The position numbers were made by a program, and so were the translations under genes. Positions 2,317 through 63,162 of a stretch of 64,000 bases of DNA are shown here, in pieces. This DNA is from Lentisphaerota bacterium (GTDB lineage: Bacteria > Verrucomicrobiota > Kiritimatiellia > CAIQIC01 > JAGNIJ01). The stretch covers positions 275,544 to 339,543 of the forward strand of contig JBPOJF010000006.1 in the NCBI GenBank assembly GCA_052033915.1, read 5' to 3'. Position 1 is the stretch's first letter. Every line of letters begins with the position of its first letter. The notes under the pieces are model-generated. The model was given only the letters and a program-made list of their open reading frames with translations. It did not search any database and was not told where the DNA came from.

Positions 2317-4522
2317 ACCGGCGGCCAAGAGCCACGCCCAGTCCGACAACAATCTGGATATGGCGGCGCGACAGTCCCTTGGGATTGTGGACCGCGACGA
2401 AGCAGATATCCTCGCTCTCCACAAACGTGAAGGAGTGCCCCTCATGGAAGACCGTCACGGAGTACGTCTCGGTCGAACTGATGTGCCGCATGTAATGTTT
2501 GACCTTCTTGAGGATCTGCGGCGCCATCGCCTGGACGCGCTCGGGCGATTCGACACGCCAGCTCGTGGCCAGCAGATCGCCGTCGCGGTGCAGAATGATG
2601 CATCCCTCGAATCCCGCAATCTGCCTGAACTTCTCCGCGACATCCTCCAGGCGCGGATGCTTCCCGCTCCACCGGCCCAACAGTTCGTCCACCAAGGCCA
2701 GTTGGCCGTACTTCTCCTCGAGCCATGGCTGGCCGGTGATCCTCTCGTAAATCTTCTCGCCGATACCCGGAACACGGCCCAGATCGTAGAGTCCGAAGAA
2801 GGGGCCGTGCTCCTTCCGGTTCTCCACGATCCGGTGGGCCATCGCATCGCCGATTCCATCGATCACACGCGTCAACTCCTCGGCAGTAGCCTGGTTCAAA
2901 TCCAACCCTCTTAAGAGAAGCTCGGGGACACCCGACAGGTTGGCGGGCGCGTGAATCGGCGCGGCAACCGGCGGCGGCTCCACTTTCGCTACGGGGGGTT
3001 GTGCCGGCGGCATGGCGACCGGCGCAGGCTTCTCCACTTTCGCCGCGGGCGGTTGCGGCGGCGGAGCCGCCGTGCTGCCGGCAACCAGATCCATCGGCAT
3101 GAACTTCTTCGGGGCCGGACCGCCAAAAGCCACGGGCGCTTCGACCGGCGGAGCCGTGGGCGCAACGGGTTTGGGTGCAGGCGCAACCGGCGCAGGGGCA
3201 GCGGGCTTGGGCACCGGTGCGATTGGCGCTACCGGCGGGGGCGCGGGCTTGGACACCGTCGGTGTGGGAGCATCGGGTTTTGGCGCGGGCGCGATCGGTG
3301 CGGACGGCGGAGGCGCAGGCTTGGATACCGCCGGCGCGGGAGCATCGGGTTTTGGCGCGGGCGCGATCGGTGCGGACGGCGGAGGCGTGGGCTTGGACAC
3401 CGCCGGTGTGGGAGCAACGGGTTTTGGCGCAGGCGCGGGCTTGGACGCAGCCTGCGCGGGAGCCGGTTCCGCGAGCTTGAACAAGTCGGGCAAATCATGA
3501 ACGGCCGACTTCGTGGGCACTTCGGCGGTTCGTTTCTTCAATTCATCCGGCGGAATGGCCGCGACCACAATCGATAACGGCAAGGTGACAAGTTCTTCGG
3601 AATCCGCCTTGGCGCCGGCGGAGAGATACGTCTTGGGAACAGCCGCCAGCAATTTGTTCATCGGCAACTTGACGGAGCCTTTCGCAAGCTGTTCAAAGAT
3701 CTCGTCCATTACGACATCCACCCTGGCATCCGGTGGAACCATCGCCGACTTGAATGTCGAGGGCAGCACGGCCTTCAACTCGGAGATCTTCAGGTTCAGC
3801 GTGACGGATTCCGCGGGCTTCGCAGTCGAAGCCGCGGGTTTTTCCGCCGCGGATGCCGATGCGGCTGCGGGCGCTGCCGGAGCGGCGGAGGGGCTGACCT
3901 TGAAGAGGTTCGGAAGTTCAGACGCGATCCGGTCCTGCCGGATGCTGCCGGTTCGCTTCTTCAACTCCGCCGGATCAACGGCGGCGACCACTGCGGCCAG
4001 CGGCAGCAGAACCTTCATCTCGCTCTTGGTTTCGGCGGGATTGGCGAGGTACTGCCGGGGAACACCGGCCAACAGGTAGCCCAGCGTTGTTTCGATCTTC
4101 CCCTTGGCCATCTGATCGAACAAATCCTCGATCACCACGTCCGCCTTCTCTCCCGATACCGCCTTGGCATCCACAAAGGAAGAGGGAACCACCTCGGCGA
4201 TATCGCGAAGGCTCATGGCCACCGTCTGAAGGCGATCCGAAGACCCGGAGTCATCGGAAGGCGGCACCACCGAGGATTCGGCCATCAGAGTTTCGATCTG
4301 CTGAAGAGCCGCGACAATTTCCTCCAATTGCATCGGCTTTTCACGCGGCGGAGGGGGCGCGCTCACAGCGGTTTTTTGGGTGGAAGGCGCAGCAACCTGC
4401 GGCGGAGGCGCCGTCACGGGAGCCGCAGGAGCACGAGACTCCTTGGGGTCCTCTTTCTTCTCCGCGCGTCCTTTGAAGATGCTTCCAAACAGGGCCATTT
4501 TTCCCGCCTGAGAGAGGCTCAC
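2294..4522 (-). CDS. Proline-rich multi-domain scaffold protein. It has a duplicated approximately 100-aa module, a ComEA-like helix-hairpin-helix, and a C-terminal Roadblock/LC7 (MglB/MglC-like) domain
   Basis: 742 aa. Two internal repeats are VPSSFVDAKAVSGEKADVVIEDLFDQMAKGKIETTLGYLLAGVP... and LPSTFKSAMVPPDARVDVVMDEIFEQLAKGSVKLPMNKLLAAVP.... A 3x Pro-rich repeat (APAPKPDAPAPAVSKPAPPPSAPI) follows. The HhH segment reads LNQATAEELTRVIDGIGDAMAHRIVENRKEHGPFFGLYDLGRVPGIGEKIYERITG. The C-terminal segment EGCIILHRDGDLLATSW...YSVTVFHEGHSFTFVESEDICFVAVHNP fits the Roadblock fold pattern. Confidence 0.65.
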   Translation of the reverse strand: MSLSQAGKMALFGSIFKGRAEKKEDPKESRAPAAPVTAPPPQVAAPSTQKTAVSAPPPPREKPMQLEEIVAALQQIETLMAESSVVPPSDDSGSSDRLQTVAMSLRDIAEVVPSSFVDAKAVSGEKADVVIEDLFDQMAKGKIETTLGYLLAGVPRQYLANPAETKSEMKVLLPLAAVVAAVDPAELKKRTGSIRQDRIASELPNLFKVSPSAAPAAPAAASASAAEKPAASTAKPAESVTLNLKISELKAVLPSTFKSAMVPPDARVDVVMDEIFEQLAKGSVKLPMNKLLAAVPKTYLSAGAKADSEELVTLPLSIVVAAIPPDELKKRTAEVPTKSAVHDLPDLFKLAEPAPAQAASKPAPAPKPVAPTPAVSKPTPPPSAPIAPAPKPDAPAPAVSKPAPPPSAPIAPAPKPDAPTPTVSKPAPPPVAPIAPVPKPAAPAPVAPAPKPVAPTAPPVEAPVAFGGPAPKKFMPMDLVAGSTAAPPPQPPAAKVEKPAPVAMPPAQPPVAKVEPPPVAAPIHAPANLSGVPELLLRGLDLNQATAEELTRVIDGIGDAMAHRIVENRKEHGPFFGLYDLGRVPGIGEKIYERITGQPWLEEKYGQLALVDELLGRWSGKHPRLEDVAEKFRQIAGFEGCIILHRDGDLLATSWRVESPERVQAMAPQILKKVKHYMRHISSTETYSVTVFHEGHSFTFVESEDICFVAVHNPKGLSRRHIQIVVGLGVALGRRFSGYRGA
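3178..3450. repeat. Approximately 72-bp tandem repeat (about 3.5 copies) encoding the Pro/Ala-rich linker of the scaffold protein
   Basis: Units begin near 3245, 3317 and 3389 (gggcttggacaccg..cggtgtgggagcatcgggttttggcgcgggcgcgatcggtgcggacggcggaggcg). A degenerate copy sits at 3178-3244. The repeat is in frame on the minus strand. Confidence 0.7.
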
Positions 4523-7229: not shown

Positions 7230-8453
7230 TCACTTTTCGAATGACAGCTTGATGCCGCGGCGAACAAAGGTTGGAATATCCAAATCCTCCCCGGCATAAA
7301 GGGTCGGTTCGATGTTCTTGAAGCGGCCCTTGTCGCCTGTGTCAAAATTCAACGTGGACTGGATCGCGCGGGCGCCCGAGGGCATCGCAGCCTTGCTTCC
7401 CGTCCGCAGCTCAGGGGCCAACCCTTCAACCACCTTTTCAGGAAATCCTGCCGCCGGCTCGGGGACATCGCCCTCGCCGGTCCAGCTTTCGGCGGCCAGC
7501 ACCGTCAGCGTGAGCCGGTTCTGCCAGGCCTCGTCCACCGTCGCCCCCATGAACAGTTTGACACCGGGTCGGGCGACCGCGGTCAACTGGGACATGATGT
7601 TCTGCACGTCGAGCAACGTCAGGTCCGGACCTCCGTTGATGCTGACCATCAGCGCCCCTGCCTGCGAGAGGATGCGGCCGCGATCCAGCAGAGGGCTCTT
7701 CATCAGTTCCGAGACGGCCGCCGACGCTTTGGCCGTACCCGTTCCCTCGCCGTAACCGAAGGAGCACCCGCCTCCGCTGTGCTCCACGAGGTGGCGCAAA
7801 TCGGCAAAATCCAGGTTGATGATTCCGGTCTTGGACAGCAGTTTCCACAGCGAGCGCACGCCCACGCCCAGCATGACATCCGCCTTGCCGAACGCGTCCA
7901 CCAGGCCGGTCCGGGTTTCCACCAGTTCCAGCAAGCGCTGGTTCGGCAGGGTAATGACCACATCGGCCTGCATCCTCAAGGCGCGCAGTCCCTCTTCGGC
8001 ATGCCGCGTTTTCAACTCTCCCTCAAAATCGAAAGGGGTCGTGGCAAAACACAGGGTCATGGCGCCCTGCTCGCGGGCGATGCGGGCCATGATGGGCGCG
8101 GCGCCGGTTCCCGTTCCACCGCCCAGCGCGGCCACGATCACGACAAGGTCCGCCTGCGAAACCAGTTCCCGCAGCGAGTCGCCGTCATCCTCGGCGGCCA
8201 GCTTGCCTACCGCCGGATCGCCCCCCGCCCCAAGTCCCTGCGTGATGCCCTTCCCGATCTGAACCCGGACCGGCACGCGGCAGGCGGAAAGCGCCTGACT
8301 GTCCGTGTTGACTGCGGCGACCGCAGGACCATCAGACCACCCGGCGTGCATCCGGGCCACGGCATTGCTGCCGCCGCCGCCGAGCCCCACAACCAGCATC
8401 CGGCTTCCTTTCGCCGCGCCGACTACCGCCGCATGGTCTGTTGATTCAAGCAT
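7230..8453 (-). CDS. ftsZ: Cell division protein FtsZ
   Basis: GGGGSNAV, the tubulin signature GGGTGTG, NTDSQAL and C-terminal DIPTFVRRG conserved peptide. The start is placed at MLESTDHAAVVG (ATG 8451-8453). The longer ORF reaching 8678 overlaps ftsA in another frame. Confidence 0.9.
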   Translation of the reverse strand: MLESTDHAAVVGAAKGSRMLVVGLGGGGSNAVARMHAGWSDGPAVAAVNTDSQALSACRVPVRVQIGKGITQGLGAGGDPAVGKLAAEDDGDSLRELVSQADLVVIVAALGGGTGTGAAPIMARIAREQGAMTLCFATTPFDFEGELKTRHAEEGLRALRMQADVVITLPNQRLLELVETRTGLVDAFGKADVMLGVGVRSLWKLLSKTGIINLDFADLRHLVEHSGGGCSFGYGEGTGTAKASAAVSELMKSPLLDRGRILSQAGALMVSINGGPDLTLLDVQNIMSQLTAVARPGVKLFMGATVDEAWQNRLTLTVLAAESWTGEGDVPEPAAGFPEKVVEGLAPELRTGSKAAMPSGARAIQSTLNFDTGDKGRFKNIEPTLYAGEDLDIPTFVRRGIKLSFEK

Positions 8454-20034: not shown

Positions 20035-20121
20035 ACGCCCCGGTCGAGAGGAACGCGCGCCGGGGAATGTCGAGGCGCCCGTGCTTCCGCCTGCGACAAG
20101 AGGGATTTCCAAAACACCGCG

Positions 20122-21624
20122 CTACGGCTCGCGGGTCGTGAACGACTTCATGTCGCGGGCGCAGAGAATCTGGATCACGTTGCGGCCGGAGACCGCCGCG
20201 GGAGGAAGACCGCCGCCCGGCTCGACCCACTGACCGGCCATGTAGAAATTCTCCAAGCCCGGCAGGGTCTTCTTCATGCGGATGCTCATCGACTTCGTGG
20301 TAAGGAGCCATCCCTCCCACGCGCCCTTCCACACACCCGTGTACCGCTGGTAGGTCACCGGCGTCGCGACGTCGATCATCTCGACCTGCGTCTCGATGCC
20401 CGGATACTTCTTCGCCAACTGACGGACGACGGATTCCCCCGCCTTCTTCTTCTCGTCGTCGTACTTCTGCCGGTCGGCCGACAACTTTTTCCAGTACTCG
20501 TAACCGGCATCCATCGTAACCTGCACGACGGATTTGCCCGGCGGCGCAAAGCTCGAATCATGGCAGAAATGCTGCACGGCCAGCCGGCGGCGCGCGCTGC
20601 CGCCGATCTTCACCGGCTTTTCGAGAAGCCACGCCTGCGTATGAGGCTCGCCGGACAGGTCGCGCGCCACGCCGAGCGACACAAGAAGCAGCGGAGGGAA
20701 GGTCGGGAGCGACTTGTAGTAGCTCCGGATCGTATCGTCGATGAACCTGCCCTTCAGCATGTCGAACACGGTCGCGTGGCCGTCGGCCGCCGAAATCACG
20801 ACATCCGCCTTGTGCTCCGTCCCGTCCTCAAGCTTCACGCCCACGGCGCGACGGCCGGAGACGAGGATCTCGGCCACTTTGGACTTGTACCGGATCTCGC
20901 CGCCGAGCGCCTTGTAGCGCGTCTCGACGGCCTCGGAGAACGCCCGCGAGCCGCCGAGCGGCATGCCGGCCACCTTGCGGTCCTGCCACGCGAGGGTCAT
21001 CAGCATGCCGATGACGGGAAAGTCCTTGAGATCGAACACGGCCTTGAGGGCTTCGCGCAGGAAGGCGTCCTTGATCTGCGCCGCGAACTCGTTGAGGCTG
21101 TGCTTGCCGTACTTGAAGAAGATGCCGAAGTACGGAAGCGTCTTGACAAAGGAATCGAACGAATCCTTGAACGTCCAGAGCTCGTGCGGCTTTTCCAATC
21201 CCATGTCGTACTCGCCCAGCTTGCGGATCGCGTCCACAAAGCCGTCGATAACCTTGGCGTCCCCGGGGGCCAGCTCCTTCATGTGCTTGCGAAGCTTCTC
21301 GGCGCGGGTGTACACGATGAACGTCTTTCCGCCGCCGGTCACGCGCAGGTACTCGTCGGGGTCCACGAACTTCCGGCCCTGCACCGCGCCCAATTCCCTC
21401 CACATCTTGTTGAACGAGTTGGCGGAACTGGAGCCGACGAGCCAGTGAATGCATCCGTCGATGGTGTAGCCGTTGCGAGTCCACCCCGTACACTGGCCGC
21501 CGGGCCGGTTATGCATCTCGAAAATCGTGGTCTGATATCCATTCATCCGGCCGTAGCATCCGGCTGACAAACCCGCGATCCCGCCGCCAATGATTGCGAT
21601 GGATTTACTCATGATGAGGGTCAT
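20122..21624 (-). CDS. FAD/NAD(P)-dependent oxidoreductase, phytoene-desaturase (CrtI/COG1233) family
   Basis: IAIIGGGIAGLSAG Rossmann dinucleotide motif at the N-terminus, approximately 500 aa, CrtI-like C-terminal region. The start is at MTLIMSKS; the upstream part of the ORF is an extension. Confidence 0.75.
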   Translation of the reverse strand: MTLIMSKSIAIIGGGIAGLSAGCYGRMNGYQTTIFEMHNRPGGQCTGWTRNGYTIDGCIHWLVGSSSANSFNKMWRELGAVQGRKFVDPDEYLRVTGGGKTFIVYTRAEKLRKHMKELAPGDAKVIDGFVDAIRKLGEYDMGLEKPHELWTFKDSFDSFVKTLPYFGIFFKYGKHSLNEFAAQIKDAFLREALKAVFDLKDFPVIGMLMTLAWQDRKVAGMPLGGSRAFSEAVETRYKALGGEIRYKSKVAEILVSGRRAVGVKLEDGTEHKADVVISAADGHATVFDMLKGRFIDDTIRSYYKSLPTFPPLLLVSLGVARDLSGEPHTQAWLLEKPVKIGGSARRRLAVQHFCHDSSFAPPGKSVVQVTMDAGYEYWKKLSADRQKYDDEKKKAGESVVRQLAKKYPGIETQVEMIDVATPVTYQRYTGVWKGAWEGWLLTTKSMSIRMKKTLPGLENFYMAGQWVEPGGGLPPAAVSGRNVIQILCARDMKSFTTREP

Positions 21625-21725
21625 TAAACCTAAAAGCGGATTCCGGCGCAAATGGAAAGGAAACGCGGCTGCGGACGGCATTGTCCGCGTCCAAACCCTG
21701 GTCCCGGCGCCGCGCGAGGTCGGAT

Positions 21726-21790
21726 TTCCAACGATTGGAAGAACGCGCCCGCGTTTTTCCAAGGGTTGGAAGAAAAGCCTTTTTTGGAAG
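21726..21790. promoter_or_regulatory. Divergent-promoter operator cluster. Two 15-bp palindromes TTCCAA-N3-TTGGAA (21726-21740, 21757-21771) sit 31 bp apart. A GC hairpin AACGCG-cc-CGCGTT lies between them, and a downstream TTGGAAG-AAAAGcCTTTT-TTGGAAG follows
   Basis: Read directly. The cluster lies between the CrtI-like gene (minus) and the glycan operon (plus). The same palindrome pair with the same spacing recurs at 61982-62027. Confidence 0.5.
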
Positions 21791-21883
21791 AAACAAATCC
21801 GGGCGGACGGTGTCCAATGGAGTATCACATCGTGTATCCGACTGATTGACACGTTTTCGGCGCGCAGGTACGGTAATCCGCAT

Positions 21884-22831
21884 ATGAATAATACTTCCCG
21901 AACCGTTCTCGTAACCGGCGCGGCCGGCTACCTGGGATCCATCGCGGTCCCCGAACTCCTCAAGTTGGGCCATCGCGTGATCGCCGTGGACAATTTCATG
22001 TACGGCCAACCGTCCCTGCTCGACGTCTGTTACGATCCGAATCTGGACATCGTGCGCGCCGACGTGCGGAACGAGGCGACAATGAAGAAGCTCCTGGCGA
22101 AGGCCGATGTCATCCTCCCCCTCGCCTGCCTGGTGGGCGCGCCGATCTGCGAGCAGAAGCCCATCGAGGCGCGTTCGATCAACCTGGACGCGATCACGAT
22201 GCTCCTCGACGCGAGCAGCGAGGACCAGAAATTCATTGTCCCGGTAACCAACAGCGGGTATGGCGTGGGCCAGGACAACATTTACTGCACCGAGGAAACG
22301 CAGCTCAACCCGATCTCGGTGTACGGCAAGCTCAAGGCCGAACTGGAGAAGCGCCTCATGGACAGCGGCCGCGCGGTCTCCCTGCGGCTGGCCACGGCGT
22401 TCGGCATCAGCCCGCGGATGCGGATCGACCTGCTGGTCAACGACTTCACCTACCGCGCGTGCACGGACCGATTCGTCGTCCTGTTCGAGGCGCACTTCAA
22501 GAGGAACTACTGCCACGTCCGGGACATCGCGGCGGCATTCATCCATTCCATGGAGAACTTCGACCGGATGAAGAACCAGGCCTACAACGTGGGCCTGAGC
22601 GAGGCGAACCTGTCGAAGATGGAGCTCTGCCTCGAGATCCAGAAGCAGATCCCGGAGTTCACGATCATGGAATCCGCGATCGGCACGGACCCGGACCAGC
22701 GCAACTACATCGTGAGCAACGAGAAGATCGAGAAGACCGGCTTCAAGGCCCGGATCTCGATCGAACAGGGCGTCACGGAGCTGATCAAGGGATACAAGGT
22801 CATCCGTCGCAACCAGTATTCGAACGTCTGA
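21884..22831 (+). CDS. NAD-dependent epimerase/dehydratase (extended SDR), first gene of the nucleotide-sugar operon
   Basis: VLVTGAAGYLGS Rossmann motif, YGKLK catalytic YxxxK, 315 aa. Confidence 0.8.
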   Translation: MNNTSRTVLVTGAAGYLGSIAVPELLKLGHRVIAVDNFMYGQPSLLDVCYDPNLDIVRADVRNEATMKKLLAKADVILPLACLVGAPICEQKPIEARSINLDAITMLLDASSEDQKFIVPVTNSGYGVGQDNIYCTEETQLNPISVYGKLKAELEKRLMDSGRAVSLRLATAFGISPRMRIDLLVNDFTYRACTDRFVVLFEAHFKRNYCHVRDIAAAFIHSMENFDRMKNQAYNVGLSEANLSKMELCLEIQKQIPEFTIMESAIGTDPDQRNYIVSNEKIEKTGFKARISIEQGVTELIKGYKVIRRNQYSNV

Positions 22832-61185: not shown

Positions 61186-63162
61186 ATGCAAGACACCGTT
61201 GTAGCGCTGGTCCAAGCCAATACGACTGTGGGGGCGTTGAAGGGCAACGCGGAAAAGATCGTGGGCATGGCGCGCGATGCGGCCAGGGCCGGCGCCTCGA
61301 TCATCGTCTTTCCCGAACTGGCCCTTTCCGGCTATCCTCCGGAAGACTTGGTCCTGAAGAAGCATTTTTTGAACGACTGCATGGAATCCCTCGAGCGGCT
61401 CGCGGGCGAGGTTCCGAAGGACCGGGCGGTCATCGTCGGCGCGCCCCGCTTCGTTGACGGAAAGGCATTCAACGCGGCGGCGATCTTCCACGGCGGAAAG
61501 CGTGTCGCGTTCTACCGCAAGATCGCGCTGCCGAACGACCGCGTGTTCGACGAGAAGCGCGTCTTCGCGCCCGGCGACAAGGCCCTCGTCCTCAACCTCG
61601 GCGGCGCGCGCATCGGAATCCACATCTGCGAGGACTCCTGGATGCCGCCCGAAACGCCGCGCGCCGCGCTCGCGCCGATGGCGTTGGACGCGGTCGTCAA
61701 CCTCTCCGCGTCGCCGTATCATCGCGGCCGGCTCGGCCGGCGAGAAGACGCGCTGGCGCGGACAGCGGCGCTCGTGAAGGCCCCCCTGCTCTGCTGCAAT
61801 CTCGTCGGCGGCCAGGACGAATTGGTCTTTGACGGCGCCAGTTTCGCCGTCGGGCCGGACGGGAACCTGCTGGCGCGCGCCCGGCGGTTCGAGGAGGAAA
61901 TTCTGTACGTCAAGCTGCCCGTCGGCAGGTCGGAAGCCGGCCGCAACGAACCGAGGCCCGCCGACGTCGAAGTCGCGGATCTTCCAACCCTTGGAAAAAA
62001 TCCGCCTGAAATTTCCAACCCTTGGAAACCTTCCGTCGCGCCGGTTTTGGACGACCCGGCCGAGGTGTACTCGGCGCTCAAACTGGGCCTGCGGGACTAC
62101 GTCATTAAAAACGGGTTCCGCAAGGTGGTCGTTGCGCTCAGCGGCGGCCTGGATTCCGCCTTGGTCGCCGCGCTCGCGGCGGACGCATTGGGAAGCCGGC
62201 GCGTCGAAGGCGTCACGATGCCTTCCCAGTTCTCGTCCAAGGAGACGTTGAGCGACGCCGTGCTGACCGCGCGGCGCCTCGGCATCGACTGCAGGACCGT
62301 CCCGATCCGGAACCTGCAGGACACGTATCTGGCCGAACTCTCGCCCCTGTGGGCAGGCCGGGCGCCGGACATCACGGAGGAGAATCTCCAGGCGCGAATC
62401 CGCGGCAACATCGTCATGGCCCTCTCCAACAAGTTCGGCTGGCTGGTGCTGACCACGGGCAACAAGAGCGAGCTGGCCACGGGGTACTGCACGCTGTACG
62501 GCGACATGGCCGGGGGGTTCGCCGTGCTCAAGGATATTCCCAAGACCCTCGTGTTCGAACTCGCCCGGTGGCGCAATCGTCAATCGAAGTCGCCGATCAT
62601 TCCGCCCTCGACTATCGCGCGCCCTCCGTCGGCCGAACTGCGGCCGGACCAGAAGGACAGTGACTCGCTTCCGCCCTACGAACTGCTCGATCCGATTCTC
62701 GAGCGGTACATCGAGCGCGACTGGGGGCCAGAGGAAATCATCGCGGACGGGTTCGATCCCGCGGTCGTCCGGCGCGTGGTCCGGCTGGTGGACTGTAACG
62801 AATACAAGCGCCGGCAGAGCGCGCCGGGCATCACGATCACCCCCAAAGCCTTCGGACGGGACCGCCGTATGCCGATCACCAATCGGTACGGAGACCACCG
62901 CGCCGTCCTCGTCGCCGAGGACAACGTGATTCACCCCTGCCGCCTCCCGCCCACTTTACAGACGGCGGAGGCCGCCGGGTCCACACCCCGTGGCGACCTG
63001 AAAGGAATGGTCGATGCGTACGAACGCGACTTGATCCAGGATGCCCTCAAATCGTCCCGCGGGAATATCGCCGCCGCTGCACGCGCCCTCAGCACCACCC
63101 AGCGCATCCTCGGCTATAAGATCCGGAAGCTCAAAATCGATCCCAAGAAGCATTCTACATAA
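61186..63162 (+). CDS. nadE: Glutamine-dependent NAD+ synthetase (N-terminal CN-hydrolase domain + NAD synthetase domain) with an unusual approximately 90-aa C-terminal extension ending in a Fis-type (HTH_8) helix-turn-helix
   Basis: The nitrilase domain shows FPELALSGYPPEDL and ICEDSW. The synthetase domain shows VVALSGGLDSALVAAL, the P-loop SGGxDS, and ...ITNRYGD, the usual C-terminus. It then continues without a stop through HRAVLVAEDN...DAYERDLIQDALKSSRGNIAAAARALSTTQRILGYKIRKLKIDPKK. Confidence 0.8.
   Translation: MQDTVVALVQANTTVGALKGNAEKIVGMARDAARAGASIIVFPELALSGYPPEDLVLKKHFLNDCMESLERLAGEVPKDRAVIVGAPRFVDGKAFNAAAIFHGGKRVAFYRKIALPNDRVFDEKRVFAPGDKALVLNLGGARIGIHICEDSWMPPETPRAALAPMALDAVVNLSASPYHRGRLGRREDALARTAALVKAPLLCCNLVGGQDELVFDGASFAVGPDGNLLARARRFEEEILYVKLPVGRSEAGRNEPRPADVEVADLPTLGKNPPEISNPWKPSVAPVLDDPAEVYSALKLGLRDYVIKNGFRKVVVALSGGLDSALVAALAADALGSRRVEGVTMPSQFSSKETLSDAVLTARRLGIDCRTVPIRNLQDTYLAELSPLWAGRAPDITEENLQARIRGNIVMALSNKFGWLVLTTGNKSELATGYCTLYGDMAGGFAVLKDIPKTLVFELARWRNRQSKSPIIPPSTIARPPSAELRPDQKDSDSLPPYELLDPILERYIERDWGPEEIIADGFDPAVVRRVVRLVDCNEYKRRQSAPGITITPKAFGRDRRMPITNRYGDHRAVLVAEDNVIHPCRLPPTLQTAEAAGSTPRGDLKGMVDAYERDLIQDALKSSRGNIAAAARALSTTQRILGYKIRKLKIDPKKHST
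61982..62027. repeat. Two identical 15-bp palindromes TTCCAACCCTTGGAA (61982-61996 and 62013-62027), 31 bp apart, embedded in frame in the inter-domain linker of nadE
   Basis: Read directly. They encode LPTLGK and ISNPWKP in different codon phases. The same motif pair recurs at 21726-21771. Confidence 0.6.

Follow-up and report, generated by a model that had tools for sequence, protein, structure and literature searches.

Phased TTCCAA-N3-TTGGAA palindromes in a Lentisphaerota genome and a dispersed repeat family of the Kiritimatiellia

Palindrome pairs in an intergenic gap and within nadE

We analysed a 64-kb stretch of Lentisphaerota DNA, henceforth referred to as the window. A gap of ~270 bp separates a 'phytoene dehydrogenase-like' (crtI-like) oxidoreductase gene with Amino_oxidase/NAD_binding_8 domains, which starts at 21612 on the minus strand, from several NAD-dependent epimerase genes on the plus strand, the first of which has its ATG at 21884. 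The preliminary description had placed a palindrome cluster between a CrtI-like oxidoreductase gene and nucleotide-sugar genes, and this is where it lies: two 15-bp palindromes start at 21726 and 21757, 31 bp apart from start to start (site A). A second pair with the same 31-bp spacing, also described earlier, is located within nadE (61982-62027). No regulator gene adjoins site A, whose neighbours encode the oxidoreductase, the epimerases and a PEP-CTERM protein.

Four exact copies of TTCCAA-N3-TTGGAA are present in the window, where chance predicts 0.06; no more than three were obtained in any of 100 shuffles. These occurrences make up the two pairs, one intergenic and one within nadE. Allowing up to one mismatch added no further matches in the window, and the count falls to chance at three mismatches. 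The features are listed below, with the state of site A in locus L127, which comes from the closest relative (oxidoreductase 93% identical).

20104-20112, plus strand: extended half-site GATTTCCAA without a partner, located in the convergent gap that precedes the crtI-like stop codon
21726-21740, strand not applicable: unit A1, TTCCAAcgaTTGGAA, in the gap between the crtI-like gene (minus) and the epimerase operon (plus); exact in L127
21741-21756, strand not applicable: spacer of 16 nt that includes AACGCG-cc-CGCGTT (21743-21756); hairpin imperfect in L127
21757-21771, strand not applicable: unit A2, TTCCAAgggTTGGAA, 31 bp (three helical turns) after A1; one mismatch in L127
21784-21790, plus strand: solitary TTGGAAG after AAAAGcCTTTT; unenriched, and mutated in L127
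21846-21874, plus strand: promoter-like block TTGACA-17 nt-TACGGT, which ends 9 nt before the epimerase ATG and is not part of the repeat
61982-61996, strand not applicable: unit B1, TTCCAAcccTTGGAA, within nadE; translated as P-T-L-G-K
62013-62027, strand not applicable: unit B2, TTCCAAcccTTGGAA, within nadE, 31 bp after B1 and read in another frame as S-N-P-W-K

Two further elements of the preliminary description are present in the DNA and are incidental. The spacer of site A does contain the GC hairpin; it is imperfect in the closest relative, and mirrored complementarity across 165 spacers of 16-17 nt equals that of the control (2.70 versus 2.69 pairs). In its composition this spacer resembles those of the wider family, with A/T beside the units and a G+C-rich middle. 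The third TTGGAAG is also there; the heptamer by itself is not enriched in the window (8 observed, 7 expected), and the solitary copy is probably not functional.

The half-site reported at 20104 was found as well. The 9-mer GATTTCCAA occurs six times in the window, including site A, against 0.54 expected. Five copies lack a partner (9629, 20104, 55824, 56999 and 57197); two of these lie in short intergenic gaps and one is near a gene start. These copies could be remnants of decayed units or act as monomer sites. The window also contains a G+C-rich 72-bp tandem repeat (3187-3437; 3.5 copies, 83% identity), which is probably a repetitive coding segment.

We compared the gap holding site A between relatives. 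The promoter-like block is conserved across L127-L129, with the version TTGACA-17 nt-TAATTT in L129, and we infer from its sequence and position that it is the epimerase promoter, though it scores below the promoter-scan threshold. The pair lies ~75-120 bp upstream of this block. L127 has the pair, whereas L128 and L129 (78% and 71% identity) have the same gap without it; there the gap is ~135 bp shorter and the gene-proximal blocks are still conserved. Because the pair is present in the 93% relative and absent at 78% and 71%, site A is a recent gain. Its position upstream of the block and its absence from the two relatives indicate that it is dispensable for the conserved promoter architecture. 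No target-site duplication was evident at the boundaries of site A as far as these can be placed, since they are imprecise. A metagenome scan using the crtI-like protein was uninformative, as it returned only 40% relatives, none with units. Elsewhere in L129, TTCCATGGGTTGAAA and TCCCAAGGATTGGAA form a decayed pair at 164-209, with 31-bp spacing, in another divergent gap, which suggests mutational loss once constraint was relaxed.

The second pair is located in the nadE ORF (61186-63162), in the linker joining the CN-hydrolase and NAD-synthase domains. This linker is otherwise variable in an alignment of NadE homologues (58-90% identity), many of which retain PTLGK-x6-SNPWK or variants of it (KDWK, KGWK, FQSLE). 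We scored conservation by the signatures of the translated palindromes in 109 homologues. At least one linker signature was detected in 38 of them and two in at least 25, always 31-32 bp apart; among these NadE proteins, 5 out of 5 FQxLE matches and 26 out of 26 S[NK]xW[KN] matches fall in the linker. The 25 pairs show three frame combinations: P..G then S.W.K at +10 residues (31 bp, n = 15), the reverse order 11 residues apart (32 bp, n = 9), and P..G then FQxLE (32 bp, n = 1). At the DNA level, L122 (69% identity) preserves both units of the orthologous pair without a mismatch, and in L121 (70%) each unit differs at one position; in both loci the units are 31 bp apart and no other unit lies within ~22 kb. 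Since palindrome and spacing survive changes of reading frame, the pair is under selection as DNA and not as protein.

The surroundings of nadE differ between the window and its relatives. In relatives, nadE ends at ~580 residues and is followed by a separate gene for a GAF-AAA-HTH_8 sigma-54 activator and then by amtB, glnK and gltB. In the window, most of the activator gene plus amtB and glnK have apparently been deleted, which leaves a NadE-HTH fusion followed by a MipA-like gene. The fused protein carries a C-terminal Fis-type HTH_8 domain (residues 613-649), a state found only in this genome's protein among the NadE homologues compared. A look-up of the window's own NadE returned no entry. 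Near-consensus sigma-54 promoters at 7623, 13455 and 16296 of L122 (TGGCACgctcaTTGCT, TGGCATaggcaTTGCT and TGGAATgaaagTTGCT) precede genes for glutamine synthetase III (glnA), amtB and gltB, which suggests a sigma-54-driven nitrogen regulon in this clade.

Clusters of phased palindromes across the Kiritimatiellia

We searched one genome per species for two palindromes 5-35 nt apart (20-50 bp start to start). This family scan detected at least 120 loci from at least 47 assemblies, and the copy numbers and taxonomic limits given here are estimates from those loci, taken from genomes that are not complete. Nearly all of the listed loci carry Kiritimatiellia/Kiritimatiellae, Lentisphaerae or Verrucomicrobia-type labels, with a few generic or odd ones. 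The listed loci contain 398 exact units. When real and shuffled DNA were compared, exact units numbered 394 (0 after shuffling), one-mismatch units 83 (0) and two-mismatch units 44 (12). The window palindromes are thus very probably members of a dispersed, class-wide repeat family rather than a local operator. This family is apparently undescribed, as nothing relevant was found in the searchable literature on the motif or on Kiritimatiellia repeats.

The unit is a palindrome of 15-19 bp with the extended consensus tTTCCAA-N3-TTGGAAa and half-site centres 9 bp apart. Within the allowed range of 20-50 bp, neighbouring units are spaced only at 21-22 bp (n = 15), 30-33 bp (n = 173) and 42-44 bp (n = 10), that is, at two, three and four helical turns, and mostly at 31-32 bp. 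The scan did not select for longer distances; those observed are 53, 62-64, 66, 73-74, 82, 95 and 125 bp, most of them within 1 bp of multiples of 10.5 bp. Arrays comprise 2-6 units with spacers of 6-28 nt, and a strict period of 31 or 32 bp runs through the four- to six-unit arrays of L035, L029, L012, L024, L040, L053 and L149. The centre triplet and the period are specific to the assembly (TSA with 32 bp, TSA with 31 bp or GSC with 31 bp), and a Tichowtungia MAG has a period of 42 bp. Across genomes the spacers share no conserved sequence, only a compositional bias towards A/T beside the units and a G+C-rich core. The commonest two-mismatch variant is itself symmetric (TTCCAG...CTGGAA).

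Density varies between assemblies. Denser ones have up to ~0.18 extra clusters per kb beyond the copy that defines the locus, which would correspond to hundreds of clusters per genome, whereas loci retrieved on other grounds contain 0-2 in 20 kb and the window has two in 64 kb. Overall, copies per genome number in the tens to perhaps hundreds.

We examined where the clusters lie. Using gene calls from a crude in-house GC3-based heuristic (~89% coding density), we assigned 126 clusters to intergenic DNA and 35 to called genes. Per bp, non-coding DNA is thereby ~29-fold enriched in clusters; some copies occupy tolerant coding positions. The intergenic clusters are distributed over tandem, divergent and convergent junctions as 83/26/17, compared with 460/98/100 for background junctions, so there is no significant promoter preference (chi-square ~3.3, 2 degrees of freedom). 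Solid convergent cases include L023, L060, L089 and L100, in which long ORFs stand on both sides and units fill gaps of 83-119 bp. With database gene calls, a five-unit array of L149 (6957-7095) fills a 186-bp gap between co-directional genes, and in L150 a type II secretion operon carries a pair at its gspJ/gspK junction. Some intergenic positions recur between assemblies: upstream of yggS-like genes (L017 and L120), upstream of a phosphoribosyltransferase-like gene (L014 and L064) and at one gene junction (L006 and L042).

The clusters do not define a coherent regulon, since clustering of 321 flanking proteins revealed no recurrent family beyond a few orthologous pairs. A shared flanking motif was rejected too: a k-mer scan of 368 flanks yielded generic T-rich or G+C-rich words. 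The preliminary description had read the units of site A as operators dedicated to this divergent promoter, and had named a genome-wide lack of promoter enrichment as the result that would count against that; such a lack is what the clusters show.

Other repeats and viral matches were encountered along the way. The same scan on viral contigs gave 16 mixed matches, some typical and others unrelated. One viral contig (L143, IMGVR_UViG_3300018422_000008) carries at 7607-7846 six copies of a longer palindrome, GGAGTTCCAAactTTGGAACTCC, with spacings of 36-60 bp, which may represent an array of phage operators with the same core arms. Upstream of a conserved Lrp/AsnC gene, at about 100-300 nt from position 10001 of L146, L148 and L149, other repeats occur: L146 and L148 carry inverted copies of CACGGATGAACAC-like words, and in L149 CGTAATCGTAATC-like words are arranged as a long inverted repeat. 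Intergenic repeat families seem to differ between lineages of the Kiritimatiellia.

Alternative accounts and known repeat systems

The repeat family recalls REP/BIME elements by its distribution, Lrp or NrdR arrays by its geometry, DUS/USS by its taxon-wide dialects and, superficially, CRISPR by its regular alternation of repeat and spacer. It fails defining tests of REP/BIME elements, Lrp/NrdR arrays and CRISPR, and differs from known uptake signals in symmetry and arrangement. We weighed these likenesses together with four alternative accounts of the units.

The strongest alternative is a selfish REP/REPIN- or MITE-like mobile repeat, in which a transposase (e.g., of RAYT type) copies the ~46-bp pair with no host function; we regard it as improbable, though by some way the most serious of the four. 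Like proteobacterial REP/BIME/REPIN elements, the units are short, many-copy palindromes, often clustered, in intergenic DNA that includes intercistronic and convergent gaps. Copy number is high and very uneven between assemblies, and a mobile repeat would fit both the non-coding enrichment, with its copies in tolerant coding positions, and the lineage-specific gain of site A inside a ~135 bp extra segment. Evidence for copying comes from the spacers. Neighbouring spacers are sometimes alike within arrays (L040 and the 62-bp unit of L012), which indicates tandem duplication. The 17-nt spacers of a single dense assembly tend weakly towards a common asymmetric sequence, approximately CGGCCsCGCAAAY, and 55 spacer pairs have at least 8 of 11 central positions identical, against 7.7 expected. 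Whole pairs were therefore apparently copied and then diverged while the units stayed intact, and this is the main argument for the mobile-repeat account.

Several observations stand against it. The same arms occur throughout the class, whereas REPs are species-specific, and the units are fully symmetric (6-3-6), without the asymmetric head of REPs. The doublets form no long hairpin of the REPIN type, which we rejected because the spacers are no more self-complementary than the control; the spacers are unrelated to one another across genomes. Mobility leaves the phasing at two, three and four turns unexplained, and the nadE arms and their spacing have been kept through 58-90% protein divergence and changes of frame. 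A phmmer search with IS200 TnpA detected no IS200/RAYT-like ORF in ~1 Mb of loci, which is a weak test. The preliminary description had also raised the possibility that the motif is the end of a dispersed MITE. It is indeed multi-copy and dispersed; it is not a classical MITE terminal repeat, because the sequence between units is poorly conserved, and we rejected a MITE on that ground. E. coli REP/BIME elements are bound by host proteins (gyrase, IHF), and such elements can persist vertically. A further likeness is to the Rickettsia palindromic elements (RPE), which survive in frame within protein-coding genes at tolerant positions; unlike RPE, which are 100-150 bp long and conserved throughout, only the two 15-bp units are conserved here, and the frame differs between orthologues.

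An RNA-level element, in which transcribed unit hairpins control mRNA processing, stability, termination or translation, is in our judgement unlikely. Arrays do fill short co-directional gaps or abut start codons (the L149 array, L150, L017 and L064), and the fold z-scores are -2.0 for the plus strand of site A and -2.6 for the nadE site. The minus strand of site A scores only -0.35, however, and site A, lying between divergent promoter-like blocks, is probably untranscribed. The stem has only six A/U-rich pairs with a loop of 1-3 nt, and an RNA element offers no rationale for multiples of ~10.5 bp. Among one-mismatch units in transcribed contexts, sense-strand transitions were unbiased (11 G-U-compatible and 11 incompatible). 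Rfam gave no match in the window at the gathering score. Given the lack of strand bias in substitutions, the weak fold z-scores and the absence of an Rfam match, we rejected an RNA hairpin. An intrinsic terminator was likewise rejected: a scan of 21500-22000 revealed nothing resembling a terminator, A and T predominate in the stem, and nadE contains the unit as well. The symmetric TTCCAG...CTGGAA variant and the absence of strand bias are consistent with a reader that recognises both halves of duplex DNA alike.

A signal for self-marking or DNA uptake, which a surface or uptake protein would recognise and whose perfect copies biased uptake and recombination (molecular drive) would preserve as in DUS and USS, seems to us very unlikely. 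The family does share with DUS/USS and HIP1 a short taxon-wide core with lineage dialects, a predominance of perfect copies and some copies in tolerant parts of genes, here in different frames, and its units have A/T-rich flanks. Unlike it, those motifs do not form regularly phased arrays, and DUS and USS lack its symmetry. Many members have few clusters (0-1 per 20 kb), and a phased pair of 24-30 bp cannot come from point mutation; site A came with extra DNA.

The arrays also recall CRISPR, in that short palindromic repeats are regularly interspaced with unrelated spacers of fixed length. CRISPR repeats are at least ~23 bp long, with spacers of at least ~21 bp, long arrays and cas genes. We rejected this identity because units of 15-19 bp with spacers of 12-17 bp, 2-6 per array, reach about half the minimum CRISPR scale; unlike CRISPR, these arrays occur at many loci per genome with a spacing that follows the DNA helix. 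We detected no cas genes or leader among the flanking proteins and loci seen.

A dedicated dimeric regulator with two operators for the crtI-like and nucleotide-sugar promoters, plus nadE, is highly improbable and already largely refuted: the palindromes, their three-turn phasing and the divergent intergenic location are what it would predict, but the units are dispersed in at least 47 assemblies beside unrelated genes without promoter preference, the pair is missing in the 78% and 71% relatives though the promoter-like blocks are kept, and no regulator gene adjoins it.

Putative binding sites for a host protein

On balance, we favour reading the units as phased putative binding sites for a host DNA-binding protein. 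The cooperative dimeric regulator proposed in the preliminary description survives here in part: the anatomy fits dimer palindromes on one face of the helix, and the regulator would not be dedicated to these promoters. The helical spacing leads us to this arrangement, with a dimer on each palindrome touching its neighbour along one DNA face. Each unit would bind a dimer of one conserved sequence-specific protein. The units are placed two, three or four helical turns apart in groups of two to six, and neighbouring dimers on the same face would make contact and assemble into a nucleoprotein oligomer, which might bend the DNA by way of the A/T-rich flanks. Such complexes could act wherever they are located, and we speculate that they may serve as a nucleoid-structuring, insulating or roadblock element. 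New copies appear to come from local tandem duplication and from insertion or duplication that places them in further gaps; purifying selection would then hold the arms while the spacers drift, as the nadE copy shows.

Known regulators offer a precedent for this geometry. Lrp (at ilvIH and pap) and NrdR boxes involve cooperative binding by oligomers of dimers to sets of 2-6 sites. Like Lrp/AsnC and NrdR arrays, which consist of 13-16 bp palindromes ~31-32 bp (three turns) apart, the Kiritimatiellia arrays come in sets of two to six. Unlike Lrp and NrdR sites, which are degenerate, few per genome and bound to promoters, the Kiritimatiellia units are near-perfect, many and in any context, and the sequence of the NrdR box differs from theirs.

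We considered candidate binders. In L066, the gene for a 159-aa Lrp/AsnC-family protein (3359-3838) lies 125 nt downstream of a pair. The gene is paired with one for an aminotransferase. Conservation of the protein across the class is unusually high (73-94% identity over 120 listed clusters); for a comparable range, NadE shows 58-70%. Lrp-type octamers bind 13-15 bp palindromes ~three turns apart, and it was this known geometry that led us to test the protein. As an autoregulated binder it was rejected, in a test that took in one member of the Lrp/AsnC family, since no unit lies upstream of its gene in L146, L148, L149 or L150. It remains a candidate binder by analogy only.

Sigma-54 control was tested as well. 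An enhancer role was rejected because GG-N10-GC near clusters stands at background (20 of 368 flanks versus 0.051 per 250 bp) and because the glnA, amtB and gltB promoters of L122 have no TTCCAA units nearby. For the same lack of units at its sigma-54 promoters, the GAF-AAA-HTH_8 activator is not the reader of the palindromes; moreover, most of its gene is missing from the window genome, where the sites remain perfect.

We note four points against the binding-site reading. The only candidate binder tested, the Lrp/AsnC protein, failed the autoregulation test. Near-perfect sites in such numbers are unusual for sites of transcription factors or nucleoid proteins and look more like amplified repeats. 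Within one assembly, the weak asymmetric consensus of the spacers suggests that pairs were copied whole. Finally, the recent gain of site A is as expected of a mobile element.

A more specific version of the binding-site reading is, in our view, possible rather than probable. It envisages an undescribed chromosome-wide system in which one conserved dimeric protein would polymerise on phased 15-bp palindromes at tens to hundreds of sites, the one within nadE included, and thereby partition or insulate transcription units, or serve in self-marking, with copying that renews the repeat and not the spacer.

Repeats and spacers that alternate regularly at helical distances make a distinctive architecture. 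In practice, the motif can serve as a taxonomic marker when binning Kiritimatiellia contigs. It also carries a warning for annotation, as the palindromes interfere with the calling of start codons and, once translated, appear as odd peptide motifs (PTLGK, SNPWK, FQxLE). The phylum degrades sulfated polysaccharides in guts and sediments and is poorly studied. If the binding-site reading holds, a whole bacterial class would carry a conserved DNA signal, kept inside an essential gene through changes of frame, and this would point to a nucleoid, regulatory or genome-maintenance protein of this phylum that has so far gone unrecognised.
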